A stretch of 64,000 bases of DNA from Nemertoderma westbladi (GCA_032718475.1 JAUCBJ010005855.1:1-64000), one strand, 5' to 3'. Counted from the stretch's first letter, positions 11,296 to 38,600 are shown. Notes: a model not told the origin generated them from the sequence alone. Numbers and translations are program-made.

Positions 11296-11455
11296 TAATT
11301 CAGTTATAACTTATACATTATGGCCTACTCTGCACACACAGTATAACTATCAGTTCAATGTAATTCTTTGCCTTACACCTAACAGTTTCCTATTCACCAC
11401 AATTAGCAACAATAATCGCAAAAAGCACTTTTGAGTTTATTTTCTTTCTTTTTAT

Positions 11456-15990: not shown

Positions 15991-16065
15991 TCTCGTGGCG
16001 TAGTGGTCAGATGGTTAAGGCGTTGGTTACATTACATAGGTTACGAGTTCGAATCCCGGTCGGGA
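15991..16065 (+). other. tRNA-like/SINE-head cassette (Pol III A and B boxes) inside the LTR; also at 33284-33358 (+) and ~54507-54583 (-)
   Basis: TGGCGTAGTGG / TGGTCAGATGGTTAAGGC (A-box-like), GTTCGAATCCC (B box), ends TCTCG/CGGGA can pair. Confidence 0.7.
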
Positions 16066-16111
16066 AATTTGTATTTTGGGGCCATTTATTTTCGTTTGGT
16101 GCTAATTGGTA

Positions 16112-16385
16112 GGCCAATGAGAAGCGTACAACGTAGCGAATGATGAGCCAGGCCAATCATAGGGCATAAATTATCTTATTGCTCAAATGTGAGGCAGTGG
16201 AAAATTCTGTTAGGATTCCATGTCCCAGATTAGTGTAAGGGCCGGATTGCGTTGAACGATGAGCTGGGCCAATCATAGGGCACGAAGCACTTTATTGCTC
16301 AAATGTGAAGCTGTGGAAAATTCTGTTTAGTTTCCATGTGCGATATTTAGTATAAAAGGCCGGTTTGCCTTCGGTTATCACTCTT
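16112..16385 (+). promoter_or_regulatory. LTR Pol II promoter: three GGCCAAT boxes, TATAAAA (16351) and Inr-like TCACT (~16380)
   Basis: TATA-to-Inr spacing ~29 nt. Two CCAAT boxes lie in a ~116-bp tandem duplication that is single-copy in the 53724-54707 LTR. Confidence 0.65.
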
Positions 16386-19170
16386 ACTTACTTCTTAGAA
16401 CCTAAATCCTTACTCTTGTAAAAATTAGTTTATTCGGTTTCTTGTTGAAACTTCGTTTGATAATTCCTTTGTAAAACTGTAAATATACTGCAAATTCCTG
16501 AACATGTTTTCTTTTGGTCCAACTTTGGGACAGCCAAACATCAGGAAGATGGCAGCCTAGACCGTTAGGCCGTAAGCAACGCAGGGAAAAGATGTCCACA
16601 ACACGCTAGCGCCCACATTGGATTGACCGCGCACCCCCTTTGCCCCTTCGAAATACTCCACTTGCCATGCAGCGCCCGCTTTGTGAGAAAGGCAAGACTT
16701 TGTTCGACGCCCTTGCCCGCCGTAAGACCTATAGATCAGGGTAAGCGTGACGCCGTCCTGGACGCCGCAAATTTAGGATCAAATAATTATATTCAGACAG
16801 AAACACCCCCCCCCCCCCCCCCCCCCTTTGTCATGTCCTACGAACCCCTGGGTTAACCTGTACTTCCTACAGGTGCGAACTATTGCCATTCGTCAGTATG
16901 CGAGTACATATTAGGTACGGACAGCATATGTTCCATAATTTAGTGATTCGTAGCACTGACTGTTTGGTACCGGTTCGCTTTGTAGAACGTACATTAGTAC
17001 CCCCCCCCCCCCCCCCCCCTGTCTGGAGTTAGCTATTTGATCAGGCAAGGAGCATTTCTGCTACCGGCACACTGCTTGGCCTAGGGAGGTTTTATTAATA
17101 TCCTACCGCGCCTTGCCACGTACTGATAGGTATTGCTGCTAACTACCGCAGCAACAAAGTTCTAGAATTAAATTAGTATACCAGATCAGCTAACGTACGG
17201 TAGCGATTAACCCCTATTTCTTATCTTACAACCAGAATCTGGTATTAGTGCCGATCCGGGTGTAGTTACTAACACCGTGGTTGCCCATTGGGTTGTGGAT
17301 AGGAAGGAGAGAGCTTTGACGTCATTTGTGAGTATAAAGTTCTACAAAACGCGACTAGTTTATTTTAGTAGCTAGCGCATGGTATCATTTCAGTCAGAAA
17401 ATCACTAAAACCTAGTAAAAGGAAATACACGAAATTGTTTTATTTGTAACACACCCACACACACACGCCCTAAAACATATTGCCCTTAGAGTTCTACTAG
17501 CTATAGCGCACTATACATTATTTTAGGTAGAAATTATCTGTATTTGTAAAATTAGGATCTGATTTAGTTGCGGCAAGAGAGAGTATTTCATTTTCGTTAT
17601 TAAACTGTTGATTTCTGTCCAGCAGTATTGTTACATTTAGGCTTGACCCTTTAGACTGATTTCGTACAGGGGGATCAGTTATCGTTACATTTAGGCACGA
17701 CCTTTTAGGCTGATTTAGACAGGGGTAATCAGCATTGTTACACTAGGTCTGTTAACCACCTAGTTCGTATATAAACCATATAAATCACACCGCGGCAAGT
17801 TACTGTATTTAGGACTGTCAGTGATAGTTAGGATTCGCTGCGCGGGGATTGTTTTTCCGTGAGTTTGGTCTGTTACTGTAACTGTACATCTGCCTCACCG
17901 GTTAGAGGACAGGTATCCTTTTGTCTAGTACGTAGGCATTAGACCCGCTCACGTACATAGAATAGATACTAGGCTCTGTTCCTCGCTTTAGTTTAGTAGT
18001 CGTTTGTGTATTGTATCTGTTTGTTTAGATATCCTGGACTGGGATTTGTTGTCAGATACTGTACGAGCCCATATACATTACTAGAGTCTCATAGTAAGAT
18101 ACATCGTTACTAGGATCTGGTAAGCGGTATACTACTGGACCCTTACAGTAGGAAGTATTTTATTAAATATCTCGACCGAAGGTGCGTGCGCATTTTAGGG
18201 TGAGATATATATATAAATATAGTTAGCTATTGTAAGTAAGAAGTACTATATAAATTAGTGTATAGTATAATTTAGATCTGTTAGCTATTGAAAGTAGGAG
18301 ATATTTAAAAATTAAGGTTAGTAAATTTAGTAATTTAGAACGTCCCCTGCTTCAGTAGGCTCTTAGGGTAGCTAGTACTTTCGTATTTAATATTTGACTA
18401 GCTAACAGTTAGTTTGTAGCACTTTGTTTTACGCTGTGTGTGTGCGGTGTTACTTTCGGTACTTGAAAAGGTACATAGGGTTTAAAGACCAATTTGTATC
18501 GGTACCTAGGAAGATTTTTCGTAAGCGTAGAAGTAAAACTCTCACCTTCGACCTTTTCAGGACTCAAGGACTCATTTCTGGACCGCTTCGAGGATTAGAC
18601 CGCTTTTCGCAAAGTTTGGGAGACAATAAATTCGTCCGCGCCGCCGAAAAACGGAAAGACCCACGTCCGGTTTGTATTTGGGAATTTGTACGACTGGAAG
18701 ATCAAAGGAACGTAAGTTTTACGACTCGCGTCGTTCAAACTTAAGAAAGCACAGTAGTACTCAAAATTTGTGGGTTTCACTGTCTATTAGTAGTGTTGTT
18801 TGTACTTATTTTCCCGTTAGACGTTGCTGTTTAGCCTATTATTTGTACTTGTTGATCTATATTTTGTTAACGTATATCGTTATCTCATTTATTCGTACAA
18901 ATTTAGCCGGTAGGCTAGATTACTACTTATTTTATTATATACTTTGTTAGTTTATTTGTACCGGTTAGGATATATATATGATATATATATATATCAAGGT
19001 AAGTTTGACATTTGTACATTTCGACATTTTGACATTTCGACATTCTGACTTGTTGATTTATTTGTACCGGTTAGGGTATATATATACTATATATACCAAG
19101 GTAAGTTTGACACTTCAACATTCAGACACTTTGACATTTTATTACCCGTACTTGACGTATATAATAAGAC

Positions 19171-22100
19171 ATGAGTGACACACCCCATTCGACGAGATAC
19201 CCACCTACCGACTATGACTCGTGCGACCCGGACAGATCGACAGTAGACGAACCAAGAAGGAGAACCCGAGATTCCACCGATGTCACACCGCTTGCGTCAC
19301 CGGTACCCCGAACGGAAATACCGGAAACCGCAACGCGTGGCGACGGCAGAATCGAAGATTTCCTTACCGTCCCGCAGACTAGATCACGGGAACCGGACAT
19401 GGTAAGTTCGACTGGAAGCCAGGAGAACGTTATTAGAAGTATAGGAGGACACATGGCCCAGATTACTCGGATCCTCGGAGAAGGTTTTCGCGTTTTACGC
19501 GAGTTAACCGCCCCGATGTCGAGATATGAGTTCTACACCTTACAGGTAAGGATAGAAAGTAGGGTACATGCCTCCGTAGATAAACTTAAAGGTTTACATG
19601 AACTTGCAGAGTTGCGCGGCGACAACTTTACTCAGGTAAAGATAGTAGATAAATTAGTAAGTGCGAGAGAAAGCATTATCCAGTTTAAGTCAGTAATAAG
19701 ATTGGCTCAACAGGAGCAGTTTGACCAACTGCTAGGTGAGTCAGTTTCGGACGCGTTGTTACAACCCGAAGAGGAAAAAGAACTCTACTGCCTGGACAGA
19801 AGGTTGGAAACGCTTACCAATTTTCTTCGTAGATGTGGCGTACCGATCGACGAACCGGAAGTCGAACCGCGAGGGACGACGGAAGTTCTCACTACGGAAG
19901 GCTCGCGAGCCTACCAACATCCACCACTGGATAGATCGTTCGTTAGCGTACGGAGCGACGTTGGCAACGTTGGCGACGTTAGTAAAACAGCGTCTGTAAT
20001 TACTCGACAACAACAGGAGGTTGCACGCCGACAACAAGTCGCCGAGGAAGAAGCGCAACACCAGATGGCACAGATCGCCATCGAAGGAGAGAAACAACAT
20101 AGAGAGGACGAGGCAAGAATTGCGCAACTCAAGGCGCAAGCCGAATTCGAAGCTTCGGAAATGCGCAGACTGGAGGAGGACTTAGCGCGAGAAGCGGCGG
20201 CAGCAGCCGACGAGTTAGCACGAAAGAAAGCAGCATCCGACGCTCGTGCCAAGTTGGAGGCGCGACAAATAAACGCTCGATTAGCTATACAGGAAGCGGA
20301 GTTAGCGGCACAACAACAAGTAGCGGATCGACGCGAAAGGGAGATGCAACTACAGTTCGAATTGAATCGTAGATCGCGCGAGACAGCGAACGCGCAAGCG
20401 GACCTCGAACTCGACGCGAGAGATAGATCTATAAGATCGCGAACTGGACACGACTTGTCTGCCCTGGATTGTATGGAAGCTCGATATCGCGGAATACAGA
20501 AGCAGATCGAGGAAGGAAGTGTGGGAGCGATAGATCGAGGAGAGGAGTTCGTCGAGGATTACTGTAAACGTTTTCCCCAAGTTATTCCTATGCTCAAACC
20601 CACGACTCCGATAAAACCGGTCTTCGTTACGAAACCTAAGGAAATAACGCCTGTGCGTTCGACGCAAGGCAACAGGTTTGTTGTGACGGAAATACCGCAA
20701 CCTAGGGCGACTTCATCACCAATTTTAGCAGGTAACATAACTAGTCCACCTACAGTAAGTCGTAGTCTACTTGTAGGAAGAGAGGAACCTGCGTTTATGA
20801 CCATTAAACAGGTGAGTAAACCATTACAAGTTAAACCTGTGACGTGCTGTGCAAATCCAGTTATTTACAGACCGACTACGAAACCCGACTATTTCACTCG
20901 ACCGTTGACACAATGTTCGACGCAACCTACGACTTCGTGGAAGGCTTGCGAGCCTACCGAACTACGGAGGAGGATGGATGTGGGTAGTACCCACAGGATC
21001 GGACAACGTATAGCGAGACCTACGACTTCGTGGAAGGCTTGCGAGCCTACCGAACAACGGAGAGCCGTAGATTCCAGACCACAACGGACGAAACCGAGAA
21101 TAATACGCCGGACACGAACCCGCCAGCCACCTTATCCGGACGACAGCGACTCATCTAGTGACTCGGAGTCGACGGAACGGGAAATATTCCGTACTGGAGC
21201 GGCGGAAGATTACAAACGAGAGGAGAGGTCGACGAATCCATACATCGACAATCCACCTCGAGAAACACCCCAACAGAAACCCACGTTGAAACCAGCGGAA
21301 ACGATCAGCGCTAAACAGTTCACCGAGATGACGGACAGAATAGCTCAACTCGAAGAACGACTCGAAGCGCAACCGTCGGATCGATCTCGAACCAGCGTGG
21401 AGTTGGAACAACCTAGACAACATCGACCACCGAGGAGAGAACAGGAGACTAGACGGACTCCGACACATCGAGAAGATGATCCCGTTAATAATTCCTACCG
21501 ACGAACAACGCGCGGAAGGGAGCGACTGGACGACGCCGCCGAACAGGGACGCGGACAGTTGGATTTGGTTAGCGAGATTGCGAAATTCGCGGCTAGACAC
21601 AGATTACCGGCACAGCAACCGCCGAAGTTCTCTGGCAACGCGAAACACTGGCGCACACTGGTAGACTACGTAGAGTCCCAGATCGCTAAGTGTGCTTTCA
21701 CCTCGACGGAGAAGTTTAATTACTTGCTCCAAGTTCTGTCTGGTGAGCCGAAACGATTAGCGGAACCCTTTATTGGAGTTCCCGATGCCTTCGAGTTAGC
21801 ATACGATTGTTTATATTCGATTTACGGAGGTAATGTCGCCATGGCTAAATCCATTATTGAAGACCTCTGCAGAGGAGGCAACATTTCGAGACCGATCGAC
21901 CTTTTACGACTCGCGGACGAAATAAAGAACGCTATAGGGACTTTACGGTCCATTGGACAACTCGAGTACGCTAACGCACCGACGGTTCTCATTCGAATAA
22001 TCGGTCGACTTCACCATCGACTACGACGAGACTGGCGACGCATCGAGTACCAGCGCGAAGAGGCCGGAGGGTTATTAAAACTCACCGATGTCTATCAACT

Positions 22101-22287
22101 GATTTCACGGGAGGCCGTGATCGAGACTCGATCGAACTATACCGATCACCATATCGCGGCGGAAGGGATAGCTATTTCTGCGCCGAATCGGACAAAACCG
22201 TTTCCGACGAACGCGAAAGCCGTTACTTACGCCACCCCTACTGAGACTTCTAAAGTTCTGACGCCTATCGGCACCACGCAGCCATGA
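19171..22287 (+). CDS. BEL/Pao gag (coiled coil plus DUF1759-like capsid region); ends at a premature TGA
   Basis: PKFSGNAKHW...EKFNYLLQVLSGEP motif. The minus-strand copy reads through this point (TKQPQQQLPADFEGC), so the stop and the nearby 2-bp deletion are lesions. Confidence 0.9.
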   Translation: MSDTPHSTRYPPTDYDSCDPDRSTVDEPRRRTRDSTDVTPLASPVPRTEIPETATRGDGRIEDFLTVPQTRSREPDMVSSTGSQENVIRSIGGHMAQITRILGEGFRVLRELTAPMSRYEFYTLQVRIESRVHASVDKLKGLHELAELRGDNFTQVKIVDKLVSARESIIQFKSVIRLAQQEQFDQLLGESVSDALLQPEEEKELYCLDRRLETLTNFLRRCGVPIDEPEVEPRGTTEVLTTEGSRAYQHPPLDRSFVSVRSDVGNVGDVSKTASVITRQQQEVARRQQVAEEEAQHQMAQIAIEGEKQHREDEARIAQLKAQAEFEASEMRRLEEDLAREAAAAADELARKKAASDARAKLEARQINARLAIQEAELAAQQQVADRREREMQLQFELNRRSRETANAQADLELDARDRSIRSRTGHDLSALDCMEARYRGIQKQIEEGSVGAIDRGEEFVEDYCKRFPQVIPMLKPTTPIKPVFVTKPKEITPVRSTQGNRFVVTEIPQPRATSSPILAGNITSPPTVSRSLLVGREEPAFMTIKQVSKPLQVKPVTCCANPVIYRPTTKPDYFTRPLTQCSTQPTTSWKACEPTELRRRMDVGSTHRIGQRIARPTTSWKACEPTEQRRAVDSRPQRTKPRIIRRTRTRQPPYPDDSDSSSDSESTEREIFRTGAAEDYKREERSTNPYIDNPPRETPQQKPTLKPAETISAKQFTEMTDRIAQLEERLEAQPSDRSRTSVELEQPRQHRPPRREQETRRTPTHREDDPVNNSYRRTTRGRERLDDAAEQGRGQLDLVSEIAKFAARHRLPAQQPPKFSGNAKHWRTLVDYVESQIAKCAFTSTEKFNYLLQVLSGEPKRLAEPFIGVPDAFELAYDCLYSIYGGNVAMAKSIIEDLCRGGNISRPIDLLRLADEIKNAIGTLRSIGQLEYANAPTVLIRIIGRLHHRLRRDWRRIEYQREEAGGLLKLTDVYQLISREAVIETRSNYTDHHIAAEGIAISAPNRTKPFPTNAKAVTYATPTETSKVLTPIGTTQP

Positions 22288-22306
22288 CAACAGTTGCCGG
22301 CACTTT

Positions 22307-25174
22307 GTGGGATGCTCATACTGCGAGCGGAACGGCAGAAACCATAGCGGACATAAACTACGTGGATGTCACGCTTTTAAAGAGTTAGGGATCGAGGAGA
22401 GGAGACTCCAAATCCGATCTCTAGATTCCTGTTGGAGATGTATGAAGCCAGGACACGTCCGGAAGGATTGCACAAGCGACGATACATGTTCTCTGTGTGG
22501 ACGTAACCATGACGCGTTGCTTCACACAACCAGTCATACTCTGACCAGACGCTTTCGACGAGAGCATCCAGATAAAGCGGCTAGATGCGACGCTCTTTAT
22601 AAGGAGCGTGCGCCGCGCGAGATCCGTACCTTTTATACCGACTGTATGGATCAGTCAGGATCATCGGACGAGGACGAGGAGGAAGACAACACTTTCTACG
22701 TGCATGCAGGTGAGGAACAGCCATCGATAACGCTCCTCACACAGAACCAATTGAAAGGGTTTAGCGTGATTCCCATAAAGATTACCGGAACCCGAGGGAG
22801 CAAGCGTATATACGCCATCTTAGACTCTGCGTCATCGCATAGCTATGTCGACGAACAAGTAGCCGACGTAGTTACGGACATGAGTCAAGGTAAGACTGCT
22901 CAGCATACAGTAAGTAGCATGCATGGTAAGAGAGCGATCCCTGTGACAAGAGTAAAACTAACTTTAGACACTCTTCTTTCCAAAGCGGAACACAGCAAGG
23001 AGGAGCGCTCATTACTTCCGGTAAGAAATTTGACCTTTGCAGCTACGAAGGACTTTAGTAACTTGCTCGGCCCTGTGCCAGAGCAATCACCGGAAGATCG
23101 TAAGTGTTTCCGACACCTTGGAATACCGGAATGTCCTGTTAATTATCATTCCATTGCGATGTTAATTGGGACAGACCAGTTTAACTTACATCAGGTATGG
23201 GAGACACGCCCATCTGTTATTACAGCGGGCAACCCCTACGCATGTAGAACTCCCATAGGTTGGTATACTAGAGCACCAATACGTTCACTAGAGGTAAGTG
23301 ACCAGGAGGACGACGTTTTGAGTACGTGTAGTTTATTGACTAACACGATAGATAATTCTCCTTCACACTCCTGTGGTCCAATTGTACGGACGGCACTACG
23401 ACAGACTTGCGTCACTAACGCAGACGCCACCGATACTGACGTAACCGATCTGGACACGACCATACGGACCTCTGACTTACAACTACTTGCAGTAGACCAG
23501 GTTGTATTGACTACTGAAGACCAAAGGGTTGTTGCCGTGGATGACTCGATGAACGAGGATTTTGGAAGGCTTGCGAGCCTACCGAAAAATCCGAAGGTCA
23601 TTGACCCCACCCACCAGGCTTCGACACCGGTCGTTGATCTTGGAAGGCTTGCGAGCCTACCGACAGATCAAAAGGTTGTCAAACCGCCGCACGACGATTC
23701 GACGCCGACTAGTGACACCGGAAGGCTTGCGAGCCTACCAGACACCTTGACACTAGCCACCGCAGCGGACGAAGACGTGGACGAGGACCATGGCGCAGTG
23801 CAAGCAGCGCTTGACCGACTGCTGACTGAACGGACCATACAATGGTTGGAACAGGACTCAGCAGAACCCGGTAGTTACGAGACCGCTATGTCAGAACAGG
23901 AAAAACGGTCATTAAATATTATGAGAGATACCATTCGCCAGACCGCGAATGGCCACTATGAGGTTGGTATGTTGTGGCGCAATGGACAACCTAAGCTCGT
24001 TAACAATTACCCGCTTGCTTTGAGGCGACTCAAATCAATAAGGCAGCGATTGTTGCGAGACGAGATGGCCCATATGCAATACAATGCACAACTTCAGACG
24101 TATCTCCAAAAGGGATACGCCATTACGATGTTAAATCCCGAGGTAACCACAGACCAGACATATTACCTGCCACATCATTTTGTTCGACACCCGGACAAAC
24201 CTGGCAAGGTGCGTGTAGTCAACGACTGCGCCGCGCTTTACCAAGGGATGTCTATGAATAGCGAACTGATGGACGGGCCGAATATGAATAATTACCTCAT
24301 GGGAGTCCTAATGCGTTTTAGACAACGCAAAGTGGCTTTCACCTGTGACGTAGAGGCCATGTTTCACCAGGTTAAGGCTTTGGAGCGGGACAGGGACAGT
24401 TTGAGGTTTCTTTGGTATCCGGACGGAAACTTACAACTTCCGCCAGAAACTTACCAAATGCAGGTAAGAGTATTCGGAGCCAGGGACAGCCCCAACTGCA
24501 CCATGTACGCATTAAAGCAGACAGCATTGGACAGACGAGACCAATTTGACCCAGAAGTAGTTCGGACCGTGGAACGAGACTTCTACGTGGATGACGGCCT
24601 CAAGAGTTGTGACACCTTGGAGCGCGCTACAACCGTAGCACACCAACTCCAGGATTGTCTCGATGAGGGCGGATTTCACCTGACGAAGTTCGCTTCCAAC
24701 GAACCCGAGCTGGTGAACTCATTTGACCCGATGGATCGCAGTGGAGGTGACTTGGACTTAGACCTAGAACCTCTGCCGACGACCAAAGTATTAGGACTTA
24801 GTTGGGACCCTAACACCGACAATTTTAGGGTACGTGTAAGGTCCAACGACCAGACTAGACCTCTCACTAAGAGGACTTGCTTATCGACCATGAGTCGATT
24901 GTATGACCCATTGTGTTTCATTAGTCCAGTGATCCTACATGCTAGGATCATACTCCGCAGCATTTGGCAAGCCGGACTGGAATGGGACGATCCCATCCCA
25001 GAAAAGTTAGCTGAGCGATGGAGGGACTGGGAAGCCCAACTGACGTTCCTACAAGATTATACCATACCGAGGGTATACTTTCCTTTGCAAACCACCTTTC
25101 CTGCCGATTTAGAGCTTCACAGCTTTAGTGACGCTAGCAAGGATGGATTGGGGGTTACTTTATACCTTAGATGA
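22307..25174 (+). CDS. Gag zinc knuckles, aspartic protease, reverse transcriptase and start of RNase H
   Basis: CWRCMKPGHVRKDC, CSLCGRNH; AILDSAS; YYLPHH, FTCDVEAMFHQV, FGARDSP, YVDD; LGLSWD, YDPL, FSDAS; in-frame TGA at 25172. Confidence 0.95.
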   Translation: MGCSYCERNGRNHSGHKLRGCHAFKELGIEERRLQIRSLDSCWRCMKPGHVRKDCTSDDTCSLCGRNHDALLHTTSHTLTRRFRREHPDKAARCDALYKERAPREIRTFYTDCMDQSGSSDEDEEEDNTFYVHAGEEQPSITLLTQNQLKGFSVIPIKITGTRGSKRIYAILDSASSHSYVDEQVADVVTDMSQGKTAQHTVSSMHGKRAIPVTRVKLTLDTLLSKAEHSKEERSLLPVRNLTFAATKDFSNLLGPVPEQSPEDRKCFRHLGIPECPVNYHSIAMLIGTDQFNLHQVWETRPSVITAGNPYACRTPIGWYTRAPIRSLEVSDQEDDVLSTCSLLTNTIDNSPSHSCGPIVRTALRQTCVTNADATDTDVTDLDTTIRTSDLQLLAVDQVVLTTEDQRVVAVDDSMNEDFGRLASLPKNPKVIDPTHQASTPVVDLGRLASLPTDQKVVKPPHDDSTPTSDTGRLASLPDTLTLATAADEDVDEDHGAVQAALDRLLTERTIQWLEQDSAEPGSYETAMSEQEKRSLNIMRDTIRQTANGHYEVGMLWRNGQPKLVNNYPLALRRLKSIRQRLLRDEMAHMQYNAQLQTYLQKGYAITMLNPEVTTDQTYYLPHHFVRHPDKPGKVRVVNDCAALYQGMSMNSELMDGPNMNNYLMGVLMRFRQRKVAFTCDVEAMFHQVKALERDRDSLRFLWYPDGNLQLPPETYQMQVRVFGARDSPNCTMYALKQTALDRRDQFDPEVVRTVERDFYVDDGLKSCDTLERATTVAHQLQDCLDEGGFHLTKFASNEPELVNSFDPMDRSGGDLDLDLEPLPTTKVLGLSWDPNTDNFRVRVRSNDQTRPLTKRTCLSTMSRLYDPLCFISPVILHARIILRSIWQAGLEWDDPIPEKLAERWRDWEAQLTFLQDYTIPRVYFPLQTTFPADLELHSFSDASKDGLGVTLYLR

Positions 25175-25177
25175 CAA

Positions 25178-28015
25178 GTGACATTGGACAGCTACGATGT
25201 ATCTCTCGTTACTTCAAGGGCTAGAACGATGCCATTGAAGTATATGACTGTACCTCGTGGGGAGCTGCAAGCCGGGACGATATCCACCGATATTGTCAGT
25301 CTAGTTCAACGCGAGCTGGAGGCTAACTTGAAGGTCACATATTGGACGGATGCGACGTTGGTACTTTGGTACATAAACAACGAAACATTTGAGTTCAAGA
25401 CTTTCGTAGCCAACAGACGGGCTGAAATATTAGACCGGTCGCTCAAACAAGATTGGCGTCACTGTCCAGGGAAGCTGAACCCAGCTGACATCGCGTCAAG
25501 GGGGATGCAACCGCTTGACTTTTGTAAACCGGACAATAAATCCTTTTGGTTTAGAGGACCCGATTTCCTACAGCGACCATCAGACGAATGGCCACCGTTA
25601 TTCGACGCGACAACCAACACCATACCAGAGGGTGCCGAGATAAAACTCGACAAGGTTGTCAAGTCTAAAGCGAAAGCCAACGCCAAGGTCAAGAGGAAAA
25701 AAGGACGGACGAAATCTGATGACCTGGACGCCAGACCTTACATTACGCCAGACGTCTCGCCAGACACTCGACCAGACGCTTGTACGAATCCTTCGCCGGA
25801 TGTTCCGCGGGAGATTTCACCAGACGTTTCGCCGGATTGTTCACCAGATTACTCGCCAGACTATTCACCAGAAGAGACACCAGATTGTTCTCCGGATTGT
25901 TCGCCAGATTGTTTGATGGAACTCTCGACAGAATGTCTACCGGACGTCTCACCAGACTTTCCACCAGACATCTCGACAGACTGTCCACCAGACTTTAGAC
26001 CAGACTTTGAACCAGACTTTCTGACAGAAGTTACGCTAGACAGACTTTGGGACCGACGACAGGACATTTTGCCGGATGTTCCGTGCTATGTCTCACCAGA
26101 CGTCTCACCAGACTGTTCACCAGACGCTTCACCAGACTGTCTACTAGACACTCCATTAGAAGACCCATTGGAGCGGACTTTTAGAGACTTACCAAATTTG
26201 ACTTCTTTGGACGACAAAGGTGTGGCCACAGGGATTACACTCCGCTCGAAGAAGGTACTTGACTTACCTACAGGTAAACGTGTGACTAAGGTTAGGAAGC
26301 TTACAGGCTCACAGGAACACACTGACACTGTAGAGTTGAAACCATTACTGCCAGTCGACACATTAGGTGCGGACGGTAAAGGAAAGACCGTAGAGATTGA
26401 CGTACTTGGGGACTCAGACAAACCTACCGGAAGGCCCGTGGGCCTACCAAGTCCAGACAAGTATCCACACTACGACTACACCTTACCCGATGACGTCACC
26501 AACACTTACGTTGACAGGATAGTGAACCTAACTAGATCATGGACTGACGTGTGCCGCAAGTTAGCATGGCTCAAACGATTGAGACAATATGCCAGAGGCA
26601 AACGCGACTTTCCTAGAAGACTTACCTTAAAGGAAATTGGCCACTGTGAAGTTGATATCATTCGACATTATCAATTGCGATATTTCGCACGAGAGTTCAC
26701 AGCGATCAAACAAGGTAAACAGATTAAGTCTTCACCGATTTTGAGTTGGAGTCCGATTATTTACCGGGGCTTACTTTGTCACAAGTCCAGACTCCAAAAC
26801 ATCGACTTTGCACTTGACTTTAGGTATCCTATCATCATACCGCAACACCATGAGTTACAGCGCGCTATGATACTGGACGCACATGTACAACTCAAACACG
26901 TAGGTAGACACCACTGTCTATCACACTTACGCTCGAGGTTTGTACTGATTAGACCTAGTAAGGCACTGAGTTCGGTAACACGGAACTGTATTATTTGTAA
27001 GAAGGTGCACGCGAGGATAGGACACCAAGAAATGAGTGAACTACCACTAGAAAGATTACAGGCGTTTAGACCCCCTTTCACTGAGACAGGGATAGACTGT
27101 TTTGGACCCATAATCGCGAAACGCGGAAGGGTACAGGTAAAACGTTGGGGATTGATCTTCACTTGCATGGCCAGCAGAGCTGTCCATATAGAACGAGTGA
27201 CAGACTTGACCACCAATGCCTTTATCCTAGCCTTACGGCGATTTATCGCTAGACGTGGATTGGTCAAATCCATATACTGCGACCAAGGGACAAACTTTGT
27301 GGGTGCACGGAACGAAATAACCAGAGCTTTGAGAAAATTGGACCAAAACCAGATTTCCGAGGAACTACGTCCTCACCGTATTGTTTGGTTTTTCAATACT
27401 CCAGACAGTCCGTGGAGAGGCGGCGTTTGGGAAAGGCTGATTGGCTCAATAAAGACAGCTATGGCTAAAGTCGTACCGACGCAACACATCTTGACAGACG
27501 ACCAACTGACGACGTTACTAATAGAAATCGAAGCAATCTTAAATACTAGACCGATCGCTTTGATCCCAGACAATAACGACGTACAGTTTGCCTTGACACC
27601 AGCGCACCTGCTTATGCAGCCGCCGACGACATTGTTGCCCATTTCGGTACCCGTTGATAGTGACGGATACGGCAACAAGGCTTGGAAAATCACTCAATTG
27701 CTTGCAAATAAATTCTGGGAAATATGGCAGAAATATTATTTGCCCTCTATTTCGACCAGAACCTCTTGGTATCTAAATACCCGATGTTTAAGACGTGGTG
27801 ACCATGTTTTATTGGCTGAAGCTAATCTGAAAAGACGGTTTTGGTTGACTGGAGTCATTTTGACCACGCACCCTACATCTGGTGTAGTGAGGACAGTTAC
27901 TGTAAAGACTATCGACGGACGTACCGTAGATAGGCCTGTACAACGTCTCGTACTCCTTGAGGAGACTAGAAACGAGACGGGAGACTACAAATCTCCACCC
28001 AATATTAGTAAATAG
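25178..28015 (+). CDS. Pao RNase H, SPD-repeat linker and integrase
   Basis: TVPRGELQA, YWTDA, NPADIASRG; H..GRHH...CIIC; GIDCFGP, CDQGTNFVG, WRGGVWERL; same frame as the upstream ORF. Confidence 0.95.
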   Translation: MTLDSYDVSLVTSRARTMPLKYMTVPRGELQAGTISTDIVSLVQRELEANLKVTYWTDATLVLWYINNETFEFKTFVANRRAEILDRSLKQDWRHCPGKLNPADIASRGMQPLDFCKPDNKSFWFRGPDFLQRPSDEWPPLFDATTNTIPEGAEIKLDKVVKSKAKANAKVKRKKGRTKSDDLDARPYITPDVSPDTRPDACTNPSPDVPREISPDVSPDCSPDYSPDYSPEETPDCSPDCSPDCLMELSTECLPDVSPDFPPDISTDCPPDFRPDFEPDFLTEVTLDRLWDRRQDILPDVPCYVSPDVSPDCSPDASPDCLLDTPLEDPLERTFRDLPNLTSLDDKGVATGITLRSKKVLDLPTGKRVTKVRKLTGSQEHTDTVELKPLLPVDTLGADGKGKTVEIDVLGDSDKPTGRPVGLPSPDKYPHYDYTLPDDVTNTYVDRIVNLTRSWTDVCRKLAWLKRLRQYARGKRDFPRRLTLKEIGHCEVDIIRHYQLRYFAREFTAIKQGKQIKSSPILSWSPIIYRGLLCHKSRLQNIDFALDFRYPIIIPQHHELQRAMILDAHVQLKHVGRHHCLSHLRSRFVLIRPSKALSSVTRNCIICKKVHARIGHQEMSELPLERLQAFRPPFTETGIDCFGPIIAKRGRVQVKRWGLIFTCMASRAVHIERVTDLTTNAFILALRRFIARRGLVKSIYCDQGTNFVGARNEITRALRKLDQNQISEELRPHRIVWFFNTPDSPWRGGVWERLIGSIKTAMAKVVPTQHILTDDQLTTLLIEIEAILNTRPIALIPDNNDVQFALTPAHLLMQPPTTLLPISVPVDSDGYGNKAWKITQLLANKFWEIWQKYYLPSISTRTSWYLNTRCLRRGDHVLLAEANLKRRFWLTGVILTTHPTSGVVRTVTVKTIDGRTVDRPVQRLVLLEETRNETGDYKSPPNISK

Positions 28016-28752
28016 ATGTGGGACCTTAGTTGGCCGCCACATAGACCTACGGTATTTTAGTTATTTGTATTTGTATTACTGTACGTGCATTTGTAATCCT
28101 CTTCACTGTAGATAGAGACAGCGGTGGAATTCCATTGTCTTTATACGTGAACATGGAGGGTAGTACCCTTATGTATCACATAGGAGCGGGATTGTGTGTA
28201 CAGTAGGAATGGAATTCCACTTGGAACCCACAAGTGAGACAATTTTCAAAAATTATTAGACAAATCCATTTGTTTGGATTTAAATTTAAGAAAAGCGATT
28301 CTCCAGTGAAAGCAAATTCTAGAATACAGCTAGATAAAAATTAAAATTGGGGAGGACAAGAGCGGATGGAAGGCTTGCGAGCCTACCGATAAAATTTTTT
28401 TTGGAAAAAGAAAATCGGCCTTGTTCTACGTAGTCGTGTCTACCATTATTTAGACCAATTAATTCTCAACTGCACTATTTTTCTTGGGAAACGTAGTTTG
28501 GGAAATTAAAAGGTGAGTATTTTAGACTCGCGGCTAGTTTACCCGGAATTCGTTTTTTATCGGCACATTTTTTGGATTAGGAGCCAGTGCGAAATCACGC
28601 GAACCCGAAATCATTAGGCAAAATGGGTTGGGGTTTAGAGCAGAGTTGAGCCAAAAGCCGACAAACTATAAGTCACCTCACATCTAACCTCTATTTTGTG
28701 CTTCATCTAGTAGAAACGTAACGATATGTAACCACATATATATTCGTATACG

Positions 28753-31700
28753 ATGGCGGAGAAGATGTATAAAGAGTTACGTCAAGGGTTTACGCAAGAA
28801 CAAGAGCACCAGCCGCCATTCAATCGTTATGGAGCTAAAAACTTTAGTGTGTTTGGAGTGGAGAGTATGGCTAGGAGTACGGCCAAGCTCGCTAAATCCA
28901 AGGCGGACCCGAATGTTCTGCGACAGCGGTTGGACGCATACAACAAAAGAACAGAGGAATTACGCGCGGAATTCAATGCGTTATATCCTTACGATGCGTT
29001 ATGCGACGCTAGCGACATTTGCGAGGATCCAGACACCGAAATACGCCGATTGTATCATACGCTGCAATATTTGACGGTAAACGAACCCTTACCTGCAGCT
29101 AGAGACGAATTTGAAGGAATGCATCTTTATAGACGCGCTCGAGGAGCGGATCCAGAGACCAAGGACGCGTTCTCCATATACAAACTGTTTTATAAATGTG
29201 GAGCGTGTATGCGCGAGCAAGACAACGCGATTCCTATGCGGTTGAACTCGGAGAACCCCGAGCCGATATTAGCGCGATGTTCACACCACCAAAGTCTACG
29301 TTACCAAGAAGGCGGATACCCTTTGACAAATCCGTATCATTCGTTTAAAATGAGTGGACCGAACGCGGGTGAGATCGTTATTTACGAACCCAAATTAGTC
29401 GAACCAGACGTCTACAGCATGGTAGTGGACAAGTCTAATAAGTCGACACAAGAGAAACGGGAAGCTTTGAGCCTCTACAGGGCGTACAAGGCGTACAAGA
29501 AAGGCGAGATCGAGGAGTTCGGCGGAAGGCTCGCGAGCCTACCATTCTATTGGATATCCCACGATCAAACCGAACCCAAGGAGATGACACCCGAGCTCTT
29601 CGATAGTATCACCTTTGCTCAGCGTTTGTCGCAGAGACTACAGATACCTCATGTCGAGATGACGCGAGAACCTCAGCCCCATTCTACTGGAGCAATAGTA
29701 CCGGTTGCGAGACCAACTAGTTTTCCTATTAGTATACCGACCCGGAAGGAGACAATTTACGAGATCCCTATAGTTGAACACCCGGAGATCATCTCGAACC
29801 TGGATTTCCTCCCATCGGTTACCTTCGGTGATGTGTTAGAATCAACCGAGTTGCGTAAAAATAATAGTTCAAAAAATTGTACGCAACGTGCCTCCACATA
29901 TCACGGACTTTAAGGAAGTGGATCGCGCGGGGACGGATATCGCACCTTGTATCTTGCGAGGATATCTGACGAAAACGATTTGATTATGGATCGGAGTTGG
30001 AACGTTTGAGACCGACACCGATATCGCGACCAATTGGACCGGTAAACCTATTAGTTTCGATGATGAAAAGTCGATCGGGAGAATTTGGAACCCTACCGAC
30101 GATTTACTCGACGATTGGGACGTGACTAGCCGATCTCTGAAAGAGAATGGTTATATGTTTTACGATAATGAAGGAGGAAGCCATCAGCAAAGCCTCACTT
30201 CAAAGACTATACAGATTAGAGCACCAGATGGCGTGTTACATGTCTTCAGCCGACAGAGGAGTGATAGGAAGATGCCTATGCCGGAAGGAACGACGCAAAG
30301 ACACGCGATGATAAAACGGATAGTTAAATCCATGGACCTGGCTTGTAGCATAGAAGCTAGGATGTTGCCAAAGGCCGTGCGAGACGTTGTGTTGGATAAG
30401 AGCATCGTCAAGATCGGATCTGGTGTACGGGATGACCTCATTAGTGACTTTGCAGGGATGCCCACGGAAGAGGACCGATTGCCTACGCCATACGTGGATA
30501 CTAGACCATTGTTGCTTTGGGCTATTGAGCAAGGATATTTTAGGGAGTATAACACGCTAAAAACTGGGACGGGTTATATCTCATATCTAATGTTCAGTTA
30601 GGATTACAAGGAGAGTAAGAGGAACAAATACACGGACGTATACGGAGAGGGAGATACCCCCGGCGTAAACGAGTTCGAGTCACAGTTGAAGTGGCGAGGT
30701 TGCGTGTATTGGGCGATTACTTCACCCCCGCGGATAATCTTGCAATACTATTTAGCGATAGAATCTTCGGTTAACGTTTGTTTCATCGCGGACGTAGTAT
30801 CCAGAACCCTAAAGCGACACCCGTTATGTCTTGGCGAAGGACATACCTTTTACGATGGAGGAAGGACGCATACTGATGTATTCCGACGATTTCTCCAACC
30901 CTTTTATAACACCGATGCGCACTGCGAAGTTTTCACGCGAGCAGGACTTAGCGTTTTCAGGGACGTCTATCTCACTCACGCGGGAAGTCTAGTTGACAGA
31001 CCGTCGATGTTAACGTTAGTACCCTATGACGGGGAATGCCACGTGGAATTCGAACGCCCGGAAGGATCCTGGAAGGCTCGCGAGCCTACCGCCCATCATG
31101 ACGATGTGGATCCGACCGAGTTGACGCTAATAGATGAACCGTTACGGCAACTCATAGAAGTAGAGGAGAACCTTCCGAGGAAGACGCGAACTGAGATACG
31201 CGAGTTGGAGAAAAGCGATGCCATGGTTTGTGTACAACCTACGGAGACGAACATACCGACTGACCCAGATGATGAGAATTATCACGTGGACGGTAGCGCT
31301 CGCCCCATCGGAGATCTCATCTATGAGCGAGTTTGGTATCCTGCCAACACTATTTGTGGCAGATGTGGAGCAACTGGCCATCACGCAAAGAAGTGCGGAG
31401 CGAAGCACATATCTCTACCGGATTTAGTATGCAACTGGTGCGGGGATCAACGTTCGCACACTTTCTACACTTGCTGGCGTTTCGTGGCGCAGTGTACTTA
31501 TTGTAATATTAAGGGCCATAGGGCATCCGAATGTCAACTTAGAGACGTCCCCTATGAGCACATGACAGTTAAAATCGTTCGACAATTATTCGACCATTGG
31601 GAGGATCTAGCAGACGAGCATGTATCGACGCAGCGACGCCGCTTCCCTATGAGAGCACATTTGGGATTTTGGGCCGTAAACCCGCTCATAATGTCAAAGG

Positions 31701-32509
31701 AAGGATATGTATCGGCTATGCCTCAGTACGATGAATTGTTGGAGGTATTGGATATATTGCCATTGGATAGTGGATTCAAAGTTGTGCGGGACTATTTCTT
31801 ACAAGTGCACCCTGACAACAAGAATACTTGGAACTTTCAAACTGTGGTGAACAAGATTACCGCCGGAGAATTCGATAAACTGCGAGTTGAACAGCGGAAT
31901 CGAGGAGCCTGGCATTCGATAGCTTGGGCATACCGGAGCGCATTTTATCACAAACGCGTAACCTCGTGTATTCTAGACGAGACCGACGTTTTGCGTGAGA
32001 CTGGCTTCAAGGCCACGCCATTAGCAGAGAAGACGCGTCACCCACAGGATGATCAGCAATTTCGTATACTCAAAGCCCAGAAGGCCAGACAAGAGATTAA
32101 AAAGATAGTAAATGTCGCCGAGAGGACGACATCGAAGTCGCAAATCTGGATGACTCGGGGCACGGTTTCCCTTGCTAGAGAACCACGCGGAGGGACAGGA
32201 TACGCTTTGAATGAACCCATTAGGATTCAAACGACGTCAGAGAGCGAGGTGTCAACGGACGGAATGGTCCTACCTTTTTGACTTCCTCCTAGCGTTGTAG
32301 AAACTCGATCCGATGTTAAGCCGACAGTTGGAATCGGACGAGGATTTAGAGGATTGAGCGCACGACGGATGTGCGAAACTCCCGTCGTCCCCTTTCCTAG
32401 CGTTTTGGAACCACCGACGACTCGACGCCGAAGTCCGAGCCCAGTTCGACCTCGACCACCCCCCAATCGCACTAGAGGACGTGGACGAGCCCGCTCAGCG
32501 AAGGAATAG
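28753..32509 (+). pseudogene. ORF3 (~1250 aa reconstructed): N-terminal CxxC..CxxH domain, DEDDy 3'-5' exonuclease-like domain, 3 CCHC knuckles, basic tail
   Basis: One +1 frameshift at ~29858 and in-frame stops at 29981, 30599 and 32279. The lesions at ~29858 and 32279 are open in the minus-strand copy; family B has Trp at the 30599 position. Motifs FYDNEG, LPKAVRDVVLDKSIVKIGSGVRDDL..DF, YVDT, QYYLAIE; CGRC..GH....C, CNWC....HT...C, CTYC...GH....C. Confidence 0.8.
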
Positions 32510-33145
32510 GAAGCGAGTGGAAGGAAGGCTTGCGAGCCTACCGATTTGGATATTATATTTGGATATTTATTTTGGATATTTATTTGGATATTATATTTGG
32601 ATATTTATATTGGACATTATGTTTGAATGTTGGGTTTGGAGGAGCGAGATATGGAAAGGAAGGCTTGCGAGCCTACCGTTAGCAATTGGTGCTCAGGAGA
32701 AGATATCCAGACCAGCAGGACGAACTATTTAGATCGTCAGGAGGACATTATTGGAAGTTATTAGCGTATTGTGTTTATTTTATATTTGAACTGATTTAAT
32801 TTGGTGGAAGTTTATTATGTATATTTACAATATATAAAGATTTATCGAAAGAGTTACAATTATTTGTTCGATTTGTTTTGATTTATTTGTTCTGATTTGT
32901 TTAATTTGCTTACCTTGATAACCGAAAGCCTTTTTTGTATTTTAGGCACTAAAGTTGATTAGTAAATTTGTATTTGTATGTACGATCGATTGTATTTACG
33001 CCGTATCTGCAATATTAAGTATGCAATAATTAGATAGTGATTATATTTTATATTTTAGGCCCTACCAGTAGATTTAGAAGTAGTTTGTAAATATTTTATA
33101 TTTCGATTGGTGAAAACAGTCTTACTTACTGTTTTCATGGAGCGG

Positions 33146-34235
33146 TGATGAATTATTTCACTATAAGGTAGCATTTGTAGTTTAACTTTAACGTAAAAAC
33201 TTTCGAAAATCCGACGCATTTTGATTAAGTTACAGTAATGTAATATGCCTATTCATATTTGTACACATAAAACCCTTAGGTACTCTCGTGGCGTAGTGGT
33301 CAGATGGTTAAGGCGTTGGTTACATTACATAGGTTACGAGTTCGAATCCCGGTTGGGAAATTTGTATTTTGGGGCCATTTATTTTCGTTTGGTGCTAATT
33401 GGTAGGCCAATGAGAAGCGTACAACGTAGCGAATGATGAGCCAGGCCAATCATAGGGCATAAATTATCTTATTGCTCAAATGTGAGGCAGTGGAAAATTC
33501 TGTTAGGATTCCATGTCCCAGATTAGTGTAAGGGCCGGATTGCGTTGAACGATGAGCTGGGCCAATCATAGGGCACGAAGCACTTTATTGCTCAAATGTG
33601 AAGCTGTGGAAAATTCTGTTTAGTTTCCATGTGCGATATTTAGTATAAAAGGCCGGTTTGCCTTCGGTTATCACTCTTACTTACTTCTTAGAACCTAAAT
33701 CCTTACTCTTGTAAAAATTAGTTTATTCGGTTTCTTGTTGAAACTTCGTTTGATAATTCCTTTGTAAAACTGTAAATATACTGCAAATTCCTGAACATGT
33801 TTTCTTTTGGTCCAACTTTGGGACAGCCAAACATCAGGAAGATGGCAGCCTAGACCGTTAGGCCGTAAGCAACGCAGGGAAAAGATGTCCACAACACGCT
33901 AGCGCCCACATTGGATTGACCGCGCACCCCCTTTGCCCCTTCGAAATACTCCACTTGCCATGCAGCGCCCGCTTTGTGAGAAAGGTAAGACTTTGTTCGA
34001 CGCCCTTGCCCGCCGTAAGACCTATAGATCAGGGTAAGCGTGACGCCGTCCTGGACGCCGCAAATTTAGGATCAAATAATTATATTCAGACAGAAACACC
34101 CCCCCCCCCCCCCCCCCCCCCCCCCCTTTGTCATGTCCTACGAACCCCTGGGTTAACCTGTACTTCCTACAGGTGCGAACTATTGCCATTCATCAGTACG
34201 CGAGTACATATTAGGTACGGACAGCATATGTTCCA
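33146..34235 (+). repeat. 3' LTR of family A (1090 bp)
   Basis: Direct repeat of 15853-16935. Confidence 0.93.
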
Positions 34236-35616: not shown

Positions 35617-38600
35617 TTATTTATGACTTTTCTTCTTTTTAGAAGAGCGTTTGCGTCGCTTTGTCGACGGTGAATGATTATTGGTTGACGAAGGTGGGGA
35701 ACCTCGTACTTGCAGCCCTTCAGCGGCGGAAGGATGAATCTCCAATGAATCCGGATGGGGCGCAACAGCACATAATGCGGGTCCTCCGGTAGAAGTTCCA
35801 GGTTGAGGTTCAGTTGTCGTAGTGGTCACTGAAACGGATTGTCGCAACAACTTTACGCCTTTTCTAAGTACCTTGGCCAGTGAGGACCTGGAGGAAGGCA
35901 CCAGGGTGGATTGTACTGCCTTTTGAAGAATTGCCGCAGTAACTGGTCTTTTGAGAGTTTGCGATGACGTCGCAATGCCTCCTCTGTCGGAAATAAACCT
36001 GGGCGGCTTGACAGTCTCTTCAGCAAGACGCGCCGTATGACGAAGGTAAGCAACTCGATCCGAAGTTTGTAGCAACTCGGGATTAGCGGCGACGAAGTCG
36101 TACCCGTAGTTCGAGTCTTTCCGCATGAATTCAACAAGGTTGTAGGTCGTAACGTCACCGGGGTTCATACGACGGAGAAAGGGCCGCACATACTGAGTGT
36201 TAGTAAGCTCCGAAACGGTTAATAATAACTGGTGGAAGGTGGGATCTTTGCACTTCAATAGCGAAATAATAGGGATTGAATGCAAAGACTCCGCAATACG
36301 AGCGAGCAGACTCGTAGCGTAGGCGCGTGACTTGATTTAAGTCAGTGTAATGTTCCCACAATTTAATATACTTTAAGAGGGATGTATCGTCGTCCCGTTG
36401 TGTCAAGTCAAAGGTGCAAGAGCCCGGGTAATGCCCTTTAAGACGACATTTATCGCATTGTTCAGCGAATTGCGGGCAGTTGAAGAAGGTATGATCGTCG
36501 AACAATCTGCAATATGGACAATGGAGGGGAAGGTCCGAACATTGTAGATAGCTTTGACAAATCTCGCCGGTAGCTGGTGCTTTATGCGCACGGGAACCAC
36601 ATTGAACGCAGCGCTTCCTACCTTGAGACACACCCGAACGAAGCGAATCTCGTCAAAGGTTGTGGTCCAAGGTGCCACGGCATAATAAATTCACCGTCAT
36701 CATCCGACTCAGAAGTGGGATGGATGGATTTAGATTCCAGGACATTATCTGTTGCGGAATCCTTTAGATAAGAAGCCAGCTGTTTGTCCGAAGTTTGGAC
36801 AATCGAGACATAATACCCAGACTTAAGGATGGGGCGTTCTAGAATAGTCGAATGTAGGTTTTTAACACATACATCCTTAAATATAGCGAAACCCTTTAGA
36901 TTTAAATCCTCGAAAGCAGAGAGACGTATATTTACCTGTCCCTTCAGAAGGTGATCACAGAACTGGCTATCAATACCAAAGAAAGGGAATAAAAATCTTT
37001 GAAAACATTCGAAACATTGGAACTTCCCTTCACGGTTGACTTTGGCAAGCTGGGTGCAGAGAATTAAGGGGTGTGACCTCAAAGTTCTACTACAAGTATT
37101 GGCCAACCAACCTGACACAACAGAGTTCTCGTAAATCATATAAATAGCCAAAGAAGGCCAAAGGGGAACACTAATATTTGAATAAACTGCACCCGGAGCG
37201 GTCAAGGGACCATTAAAATAATAATGGGAATAATTATCACCGTACAGATTTAAATAGCGGTTATACCGACCTTCCTTGAAATCCCAACCGAGTTCATGGA
37301 ATGAGATATGTCCGATGCCGGTACGTTCAGCTCTGCGCATTCTGCTTCCCACGCGTTCGTAAATAACGCGGAAAAAGCCACGTTCCTGAGCCCACGGGAG
37401 GATCATTTGCGTGTCCGCAAAGGGGTAAGGAATATCTAACAATGAGTCGAAATCCTTGTATAGGTCGGGATATATTGCTGAACCGAGTTTGCAAATCGTC
37501 TCGTTGAACAACAGGTCAAGGACAGGTTGTGGTAGCATTGAGGGTTTGATAGCGAGCGCAGGGTGCCGCTTGGTTGCAACGACGTAACAGTAGGACTTCT
37601 CGAACTGTCCATGTCGAGGTAACATTTCCTGGAAGGACGGAGGGGTAAAAGATGCGTTAGAGCTATGGGAGGTTTGCGTGAATACATGAGTGGCTCCGGT
37701 GAGACAACGGAAATGTATTAGCGTGTGGTGCCGAGTTCATCATTCAAAACGGAACCTTTGTTGTCGTATAGCATCACACCATACTGCTGGATAATCTCGA
37801 GCATGTTATTAAATTCGAGATACGCAATGGTTTTGTCCACTTCAACTGGTGTCCATAAGCTGTCGAGGGATCCGATGGAGCCTCGGGCGATAACTACCGA
37901 TTTGTGACTTTGGACGTTTTCTACGACGGATTTTTCTTTCATCACCGTAGAGAGTTTGTCTTCCCGAAATCGCACGTCGACGTTCCAGTGAATTAATCGA
38001 TCAATAATGAAATTAGCAAGATTATGGGGAGGTGCGGGTTTGTCTTCTATAGTTTGTGGGGCGAGCCACGAAGTTGGCGGAGCCTTAGCGAATTGACACT
38101 ATTAGGGGGTGGGTCAATTTATGCAAATAGTTGTCGTCGTCGTCGTTGTCGTCGTCGTCGTCATCGTCGTCGTCGTCGTTACGATTTTGACATGCTAATA
38201 ACTTTGTCGGATTTAAAGCTGCCAAGTTGAAAATTTGTAGGTATCAATATGAGCAAAAGTTGAGATTTTTGAGAGACTTTCAGACACCATCAGTGCAATG
38301 GTCTCCCGCTAGAGGGCCACATGTCTAAACATTAAATGCCCTCCCATTTCTTTGCTTTTAATCCGTTTAAGCTGAAACTTGGCAGATATGTATTAGACCA
38401 TTAGCTGTGACTTTCAAAGGAGGCGAATCCATCTGCAGTTCTCCAGTCTGCCGCTAGAGGGCCAAAGGTCTGAAAGTGAAAACAACTAACGACGACAACT
38501 ATTTGCATAAATTGACCCACCCCCTAACAGTGTCAATTCGCTAAGGCTTCGCCAACTTCGTGCTGCGCGAAGGCCCCACTTCGTGTATATTAAAGGGTTT

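Follow-up and report, generated by a model that had tools for sequence, protein, structure and literature searches.

A self-complementary 20-nucleotide motif repeated in one orientation through a Bel/Pao retrotransposon of Nemertoderma westbladi

The stretch of DNA analyzed here, referred to as the window, comprises 64,000 nucleotides (nt) from Nemertoderma westbladi (GCA_032718475.1 JAUCBJ010005855.1:1-64000) and contains a Bel/Pao long terminal repeat (LTR) retrotransposon, A1, at 15853-34235 on the plus strand. A 20-nt palindromic motif, GGAAGGCTYGCGAGCCTACC, occurs in the plus strand of A1 as 11 exact matches and one variant with three mismatches at 26429, all between 19896 and 32677. Judged from the sequence, this arrangement is real, selected, and specific to the family of A1 (family A), and it is without a precedent that we could find. 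A function of the motif at the level of RNA, taking all of its forms together, is probable. The reading that we prefer is that the copies may act as multivalent RNA-RNA pairing sites that compact, dimerize, and package the 17-kb genome, and we assign it a probability of about 0.45. This reading favors RNA-level pairing because the core of the motif is self-complementary in all copies on the sense strand but in few on the antisense strand and because neighboring copies are predicted to fold onto one another in sense.

The selection and dimerization of LTR retrotransposon RNA are known in detail only for yeast elements, in which the signals lie near the 5' end. An identical and countable signal that runs through coding DNA offers a direct test of multi-site packaging or dimerization in an animal retrotransposon, and it also bears on the way in which very long elements deal with their size.

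Distribution of the motif and its host element

A first-pass annotation of the window had listed twelve starts in A1 and eight on the minus strand in a second, decayed copy, A2, and every one of these positions is as stated. The copies are given below, where C9 and T9 refer to position 9 of the motif, ORF denotes open reading frame, RT reverse transcriptase, and UTR untranslated region.

19896-19915 (+): copy 1, C9 form, gag phase 2
20939-20958 (+): copy 2, T9, gag phase 1, in a 93-nt duplication with copy 3
21032-21051 (+): copy 3, T9, gag phase 1
23564-23583 (+): copy 4, T9, protease-RT linker, 78-nt repeat
23642-23661 (+): copy 5, T9, 78-nt repeat, A2 having one unit fewer
23720-23739 (+): copy 6, T9, 78-nt repeat
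26429-26448 (+): copy 7, the variant, with a C8-G13 pair and T11, RNase H-integrase linker
28368-28387 (+): copy 8, T9, non-coding spacer between pol and ORF3
29524-29543 (+): copy 9, C9, ORF3 phase 0
31071-31090 (+): copy 10, C9, ORF3 phase 1, between the nuclease domain and the knuckles
32523-32542 (+): copy 11, T9, 3' UTR
32658-32677 (+): copy 12, T9, 3' UTR, 135 nt past copy 11
55085, 55241, 56855, 59227, 59305, 61857, 61950, and 63012 (-): starts of the A2 copies, all in element sense

None of 100 dinucleotide shuffles contained the motif (chance expectation 0.00). The count of twelve is confirmed, but the copies are not independent, since they represent eight sites with unrelated flanks, three groups being local duplications (spacings of 93, 78+78, and 135 nt). 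The sites lie 1.0-2.7 kb apart and cover 12.8 kb of the 16.2-kb internal region. All 12 copies in A1 and all 8 in A2 are in the sense orientation, and the A2 copies, between 55085 and 63031 on the minus strand, include five exact matches, two with one mismatch, and one with two.

As the annotation had noted, the motif is read in all three frames and also lies in non-coding DNA: nine A1 copies are coding, using phases 0, 1, and 2, and three are non-coding. Use of three phases rules out a constraint at the protein level. The absence of the motif from the LTRs and from sequence outside family A is likewise borne out within the 64-kb window, and the 2.2-kb 5' leader of A1 is also free of it; no additional site appears in the window when five mismatches are allowed. 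In the sense strand of the A1 internal region, the mismatch histogram holds 11 sites at 0, one at 3, and none at 4-6, and the 5' half-site is found only within full motifs. The borders of the motif are sharp at 20 nt, with no half-decayed copies. Frame independence, sharp borders, and the conservation above background described below support the annotated distributed cis-signal constrained at the level of nucleotides. Rfam and ARAGORN gave no match on the motif, and no Rfam match at E ≤ 1 lies over any copy.

The host element has a unit length of 17,293 nt and measures 18.4 kb end to end. Its principal features, together with A2, are as follows.

15853-16935 (+): 5' LTR of A1, TG...CA ends, without the motif
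33146-34235 (+): 3' LTR of A1, 99% identical to the 5' LTR, without the motif
19171-22287 (+): gag-like ORF, 1038 amino acids (aa), DUF1759; three motif copies, located in the N-terminal and central portion, which lacks homology
22262-28015 (+): zinc knuckle-protease-RT-RNase H-integrase region, with Peptidase_A17, Integrase_H2C2, and DUF5641; four motif copies, in two linkers
28753-32281 (+): ORF3, with an N-terminal Cys/His domain, a putative EXD2/WRN-like DEDDy exonuclease domain, and three zinc knuckles; two motif copies
53724-64000 (-): copy A2, decayed and internally deleted, about 91% identical to A1; eight motif copies in element sense

The two LTRs are direct repeats, both with TG...CA ends; a target-site duplication was not seen at their outer ends, the outer flanks differ, and no primer-binding site could be assigned. 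The domain order is protease-RT-RNase H-integrase, and all four Pfam domains named above score above the cut-off. Three protein homologues were returned, all of them animal retroelement proteins, two of the three being listed with the same Bel/Pao domains. The pol region is interrupted by an in-frame stop near 25172, and ORF3 is broken near 29.9 kb and 30.6 kb. A Ser-Pro-Asp low-complexity insertion of about 150 aa lies between RNase H and integrase at 25720-26150 (+). A comparison set of 77 Bel/Pao loci from metagenomes (RT identity 35-45%, 2-15 kb long) reaches the seven gag and pol copies with 0-2 alignments, versus about 80 in RT, and on such alignments the coding copies occupy protein linkers without a counterpart in other Bel/Pao elements.

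Six of the seven listed sequencing runs, from four studies, contain the stretch, none of them being recorded as RNA, although X4 is guessed to be an RNA run. Contigs of three DNA runs span 30 of 30 bins, and the summed depths of these read contigs, tens of thousands in two runs, suggest that family A is large, depth being no copy number.

Several further features of the window were recorded. Each family-A LTR holds a tRNA-like stretch, at 15996-16060 (+), 33289-33352 (+), and 54520-54578 (-), with an A box and a B box 51 nt apart, at 15996 and 16047 in the 5' LTR; ARAGORN and Rfam made no call on these stretches, which could possibly be an RNA polymerase III promoter or a chromatin barrier. 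Consensus splice donors are located at 18996 and 19098 (+), in a 102-nt repeat just upstream of the gag start, while ORF3 is preceded by a pyrimidine tract and an AG at 28690-28713; an ORF3 mRNA spliced from the leader donors is a candidate arrangement. At 57050-58480 (-), A2 is interrupted by an unrelated insert of about 1.4 kb that contains repeats of 95 and 218 nt. Outside the elements, a 530-aa ORF with Ala-Glu-Arg-Lys repeats and without a Pfam match occupies 480-2072 (-), and two satellites, one 19-nt and one 68-nt, are found at 10792-11296 and 12540-13353.

Conservation and predicted pairing

The eight motif copies shared by A1 and A2 differ at 4 of 160 places, versus 617 of 7395 elsewhere (Fisher p = 0.002). 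Outside CpG, 1 of 133 motif places differs, versus 372 of 6128 elsewhere (p = 0.002) and 22 of 380 in the 30-nt flanks (p = 0.008). On these sequence comparisons the motif is kept by selection, above the background of the element. Sixteen of its 20 positions never vary, including the unpaired A3 and A18. The variant at 26429 was compared in four runs over 26375-26505: no difference of ≥3% occurs at its 20 places in DNA runs X1 and X3, two places in its flanks did reach 3%, a single X5 contig has C7>T, which gives a G-U pair, and several diverged contigs start aligning at 26426-26429. Since contigs drop rare variants and X1 is possibly the source of the window, this comparison indicates a uniform majority and not strict fixation.

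The 20-mer is predicted to fold as GG-A-AGGCU(YGCG)AGCCU-A-CC with -7.6 kcal/mol, equally on both strands, and the predicted duplex of two copies has -30.7 to -34.9 kcal/mol versus -7.6 to -9.6 for each hairpin. The self-complementary TCGCGA that the annotation described is a perfect palindrome in 3 of the 12 copies, but the other nine are self-complementary only via G-U pairs. In the dimer register, the nine core pairs, loop bases included, are standard pairs in all 12 copies of A1. Pairs change among these copies from C-G to U-G, from G-C to G-U, and once from U-A to C-G; apart from this one double change, every substitution in A1 is thus a C-to-U that faces a G. Substitutions of G to A, which disrupt pairing in sense, are confined to the decayed A2 (3/4 of its changes), and the supply of CG>CA versus CG>TG changes between A1 and A2 is about equal (65 versus 58). 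Consequently the 14-nt core is self-complementary in 12/12 A1 copies in sense versus 3/12 in antisense.

Self-complementarity of this core in sense means that a pair of like-oriented copies behaves as an inverted repeat. When the three clusters were folded by partition function in four window sizes, the predicted sense copy-to-copy pairing was 0.99 for both two-copy clusters, and the copy at 23720 is always paired in sense with one neighbor copy (summed 0.99). The antisense clusters form mostly separate hairpins, with a copy-to-copy pairing of 0.02-0.45. Among the options that the annotation had offered, pairing at the level of RNA is favored, and specifically in sense, but a loop-loop kiss as the main contact is rejected because the loop is only 4 nt, and an extended copy-to-copy duplex takes its place.

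A mechanism along these lines would begin with transcription of the element in sense. Folding predictions give each copy either a small hairpin or, with greater stability, a 20-bp duplex with any other copy, and the knuckles of Gag or ORF3 may chaperone this pairing, as retroviral and Ty1 biology suggests. The eight sites, 1-2.7 kb apart, could compact the 17-kb RNA and join two genomes at several points, and the paired RNA would be marked for selective packaging by the zinc-knuckle proteins of the element itself. A further proposal is family-specific self-recognition, in which one self-complementary 20-mer present twelve times would let an oversized genome fold, dimerize, or condense with RNAs of its own family but not with those of sister families, as RNA alone or together with knuckle proteins, no uninterrupted helix being longer than 14 bp because of the fixed A-A mismatches; this we regard as doubtful. 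One further hairpin of the leader may be relevant to such pairing.

18901-18920 (+): 5' leader hairpin, with the stem arms of the motif swapped; also conserved in a family fragment near 52114

It is complementary over 8-9 nt to the 3' arm of the motif (predicted duplex -15.7 to -18.1 kcal/mol) and, although found post hoc, could link the leader and the motifs.

A number of observations weigh against the pairing of RNA copies as the function of the motif. Pure pairing would allow many compensatory changes, and the 16 invariant positions of 20 point instead to a protein that reads the sequence or to copying in the recent past; pairing alone leaves this near-invariance unexplained unless all copies have to be able to pair among themselves, a requirement that demands one shared sequence, and a hairpin read by a protein accounts for it equally well. 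The compensatory change that the annotation had seen at 26429 is present, but it is not significant as covariation: it is one pair at one site, 175 of 500 shuffles reach it, and the overall covariation score among the 12 copies is below the shuffled mean. Only 2-3 independent C-to-U events, two of them at CpG, underlie the strand bias, and most copies are related by descent. Self-pairing is predicted for any near-palindrome, and the energies are no proof of function. Single hairpins are not unusually stable in their context (z +1.2 to -3.7), and their prediction at p ≥ 0.5 in 220-nt windows is strand-neutral, at 9/12 copies in sense versus 8/12 in antisense. The motif is also absent from the leader, where the proven dimer sites of Ty1 lie. 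Finally, a second Bel/Pao element of the window, family B, is likewise long and has the same ORF3 architecture without the motif.

Family B, ORF3, and competing explanations

Family B serves as an internal control, and as a sister family without the motif it is a natural control under either an RNA or a DNA reading.

35617-48504 (-): family B Bel/Pao element, with a homologous ORF3 (N-domain, nuclease, knuckles); without the dispersed motif

Its ORF3 shares with that of A1 35% identity over 99 aa in the N-domain and 28% over 304 aa in the nuclease region, and the knuckles are present. Exact, mismatch-tolerant, and structure-only searches found no dispersed repeat in family B. An ORF with RVT_1 at 43967-45376 (+) interrupts family B between RT and RNase H and represents a nested retroelement that is not Bel/Pao. 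The possibility of a separate repeated motif in family B or in relatives, raised by the annotation, found no support in family B or in the 77 Bel/Pao loci. All 77 loci lack the motif, and a mismatch-tolerant search, with a power of 3/6 on 7-kb windows of A1, found no comparable dispersed palindrome in them; an exact k-mer control had no power in 7-kb windows (0/6 A1 windows detected). Four of the 77 were flagged, for terminal-repeat fragments, local arrays, or unrelated near-matches. Motif-shaped hairpins number at most 3 per locus versus 15 in A1, and self-complementary 14-mers at most 4 versus 13. One locus (L049:2050-2840) has a local array with repeated splice-donor-like words. Single motif sites in four viral contigs (with a looser pattern) and two prokaryote genomes are read as chance; a two-copy pattern had no match in metagenomes, and no Bel/Pao relative was found in viral contigs. 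The motif is a trait of family A.

On profile evidence, ORF3 contains an EXD2/WRN-like DEDDy exonuclease domain and three zinc knuckles, at 31355, 31430, and 31493. A profile of the A1 and family B proteins matched four proteins among 1.84 billion; three share the domain, one of them (P0006) also has three knuckles, and the fourth (P0005) was dropped as an unrelated repeat protein. A 7-sequence profile against solved structures returned only EXD2 (E = 0.0019) and the WRN exonuclease (E = 0.8), and the homologue P0007 matched DNA_pol_A_exo1 at E = 0.01, below the cut-off. Inspection of the nuclease region by eye shows D-x-E, a further D, and Y-x-x-x-E, the first motif being misaligned by MAFFT. 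Word-based protein searches with ORF3 gave no match, and no homologue was found among the 77 Bel/Pao loci. Structure models were poor (predicted local distance difference test scores of 30 and 46), and fold searches with them were not significant. The N-terminal domain, with a CxxC...CxxH pattern and no Pfam match, is common to families A and B (29020-29320 (+) and 39675-39947 (-)). Contigs of runs X3 and X5 join across 29315-32379, most of ORF3, so a deletion form of the family exists.

Near-invariance is what would be expected if each copy were a stand-alone RNA hairpin read by a protein, be it the knuckles or nuclease fold of ORF3, Gag, or a host factor, and acted additively as a tag for export, localization, or self-protection. 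We consider this unlikely. The 16 invariant positions, with unpaired A3 and A18 among them, argue for it, as does the hairpin predicted in 9 of the 12 copies. The bases at -1/+1 in A1 are T-G in six copies, C-A in four, and A-G in two, never Watson-Crick; U-G and C-A pairs have a like geometry, and the T-G/C-A split among the eight independent flanks (p = 0.03) may reflect two ancestral 22-mers or a wobble-shaped closing pair. The domain and knuckles of ORF3 are consistent with such a reader, Egalitarian binds a bulged stem-loop through its DEDDy domain (10.1101/2025.08.03.668247), and several copies of the constitutive transport element are described as acting additively (PMC4829213). ORF3 itself, however, does not need the motif, because family B keeps a whole homologous ORF3 without any repeated motif; the annotated tag read by ORF3 loses some ground accordingly. 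Neighboring copies are also predicted to leave the hairpin for a mutual duplex, and the deletion form shows that ORF3 is lost in some copies, although it is silent on binding. An Egalitarian-type localization signal is rejected as a candidate, being described as a bulged stem-loop of 40-65 nt (10.1101/2025.08.03.668247), versus a motif unit of 20-22 nt (20 nt for the motif itself) with unrelated flanks.

A further explanation is that the motif is a 22-bp palindromic DNA site, with half-sites YGGWAGGCTYG, for a dimeric protein of the element or the host, and that it counters silencing or insulates, as VANC does for VANDAL. This appears somewhat less likely still; if true, it would represent a VANC-like system in an animal LTR element. 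Family A is likely methylated by the host, because CpG changes twice as often as GpC between A1 and A2 (126/571 versus 44/389) and 3/4 LTR substitutions of A1 are at CpG, and it stays CpG-rich (observed/expected 1.0-1.44, versus 0.91 in family B and 0.87 in the left flank). The flanks fit dyad symmetry (Y at -1 in 8/9 and R at +1 in 9/9 independent flanks), ORF3 has an uncharacterized Cys/His domain, and VANC motifs are likewise same-orientation, family-specific, and multiplied in tandem (PMC5735166). The annotated VANC-like site is nevertheless weakened. No copy lies in the LTR or the 2.2-kb leader, the promoter region has none, and 9/12 copies are coding whereas VANC motifs are described as mainly non-coding (PMC5735166). 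CpG loss, a proxy for methylation, is not significantly lower near the motifs than far from them (15/90 versus 108/467, p = 0.11). The symmetric T8/A13 change at 26429 would hit both half-sites together, and C9T is common in A1 while its mirror, G12A, is absent.

It is quite improbable that the copies lack a function or are selfish, with a stable palindrome being spread and homogenized by template switching or gene conversion and surviving where the protein tolerates it: the coding copies do lie outside the regions shared with other Bel/Pao proteins, the three clusters are plain tandem duplications, the two flank types (C..A and T..G) suggest copied 22-mers, and conversion between copies could mimic conservation, but there are no decayed or half copies (none at 4-6 mismatches), no antisense insertion among 20 copies, and no repair of the A-A mismatch, the 26429 variant has escaped back-conversion and is uniform across two runs, and the deletion joints (top 15 of 198) fall off motif pairs except for one between the 3' UTR duplicates.

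Comparison with known systems

Literature searches returned no LTR element, Bel/Pao or otherwise, described as having a palindrome repeated along its coding region, a weak negative given thin literature coverage of subscription papers. The histone 3' stem-loop, which has a 6-bp stem and a UUUC-type loop at the RNA 3' end, was rejected as a candidate: the motif has a 5-bp stem, a YGCG loop, and internal positions, with no Rfam match at E ≤ 1. Resemblances to tRNA-end or primer-site mimicry, bacterial repetitive extragenic palindromic sequences, and p53 sites were dropped for want of a consistent match.

Retroviral dimer-initiation hairpins are self-complementary and of a similar kind. The PAL1/PAL2 hairpin in the 5' UTR of Ty1 converts to an extended dimer duplex (PMC6844567). 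The A1 motif resembles it as a self-complementary hairpin of an LTR element that is able, here by prediction, to form an extended duplex with small distortion. It differs in that PAL1/2 are two short sites of the 5' UTR in that account (PMC6844567), whereas A1 has 12 near-identical 20-mers at eight sites over 12.8 kb, mostly coding and none in the leader. Ty1 PAL and retroviral dimer sites number one to three and are confined to the 5' leader; all eight sites of A1 lie downstream of the gag start.

VANC motifs of VANDAL elements are reported as 9-bp, same-orientation, and mainly non-coding (PMC5735166). Both systems have a family-specific, same-orientation, partly tandem motif in an element that is methylated, in the case of A1 probably so, and has an extra ORF, but the VANC motifs are non-palindromic, dense, and in DNA transposons (PMC5735166), whereas that of A1 is a 20-nt palindrome that is sparse, mainly coding, and absent from the promoter region. 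A DEDDy-exonuclease ORF3 is described in the bdelloid Juno/Vesta LTR elements and in Athena elements (PMC5408684), so that A1 is not the only LTR retrotransposon whose additional 3' ORF encodes a DEDDy-like nuclease. The difference is that A1 is Bel/Pao with its nuclease fused to an N-domain and three knuckles, and no repeated cis-motif is reported for the others in the available part of that paper (PMC5408684).

Viral packaging signals are likewise many dispersed sequence-structure motifs on the coding strand of a genome, as are the 12 sense-only copies of A1. Dispersed, packaging-signal-mediated assembly is reportedly the subject of a coronavirus preprint (10.64898/2026.06.18.733228) as well. 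Such signals are established in RNA viruses, with MS2, hepatitis B virus, and picornaviruses as examples (PMC6281560). They vary in affinity and bind coat protein according to that source (PMC6281560), whereas the motifs of A1 are near-identical, fully self-complementary, and carried by a retrotransposon.

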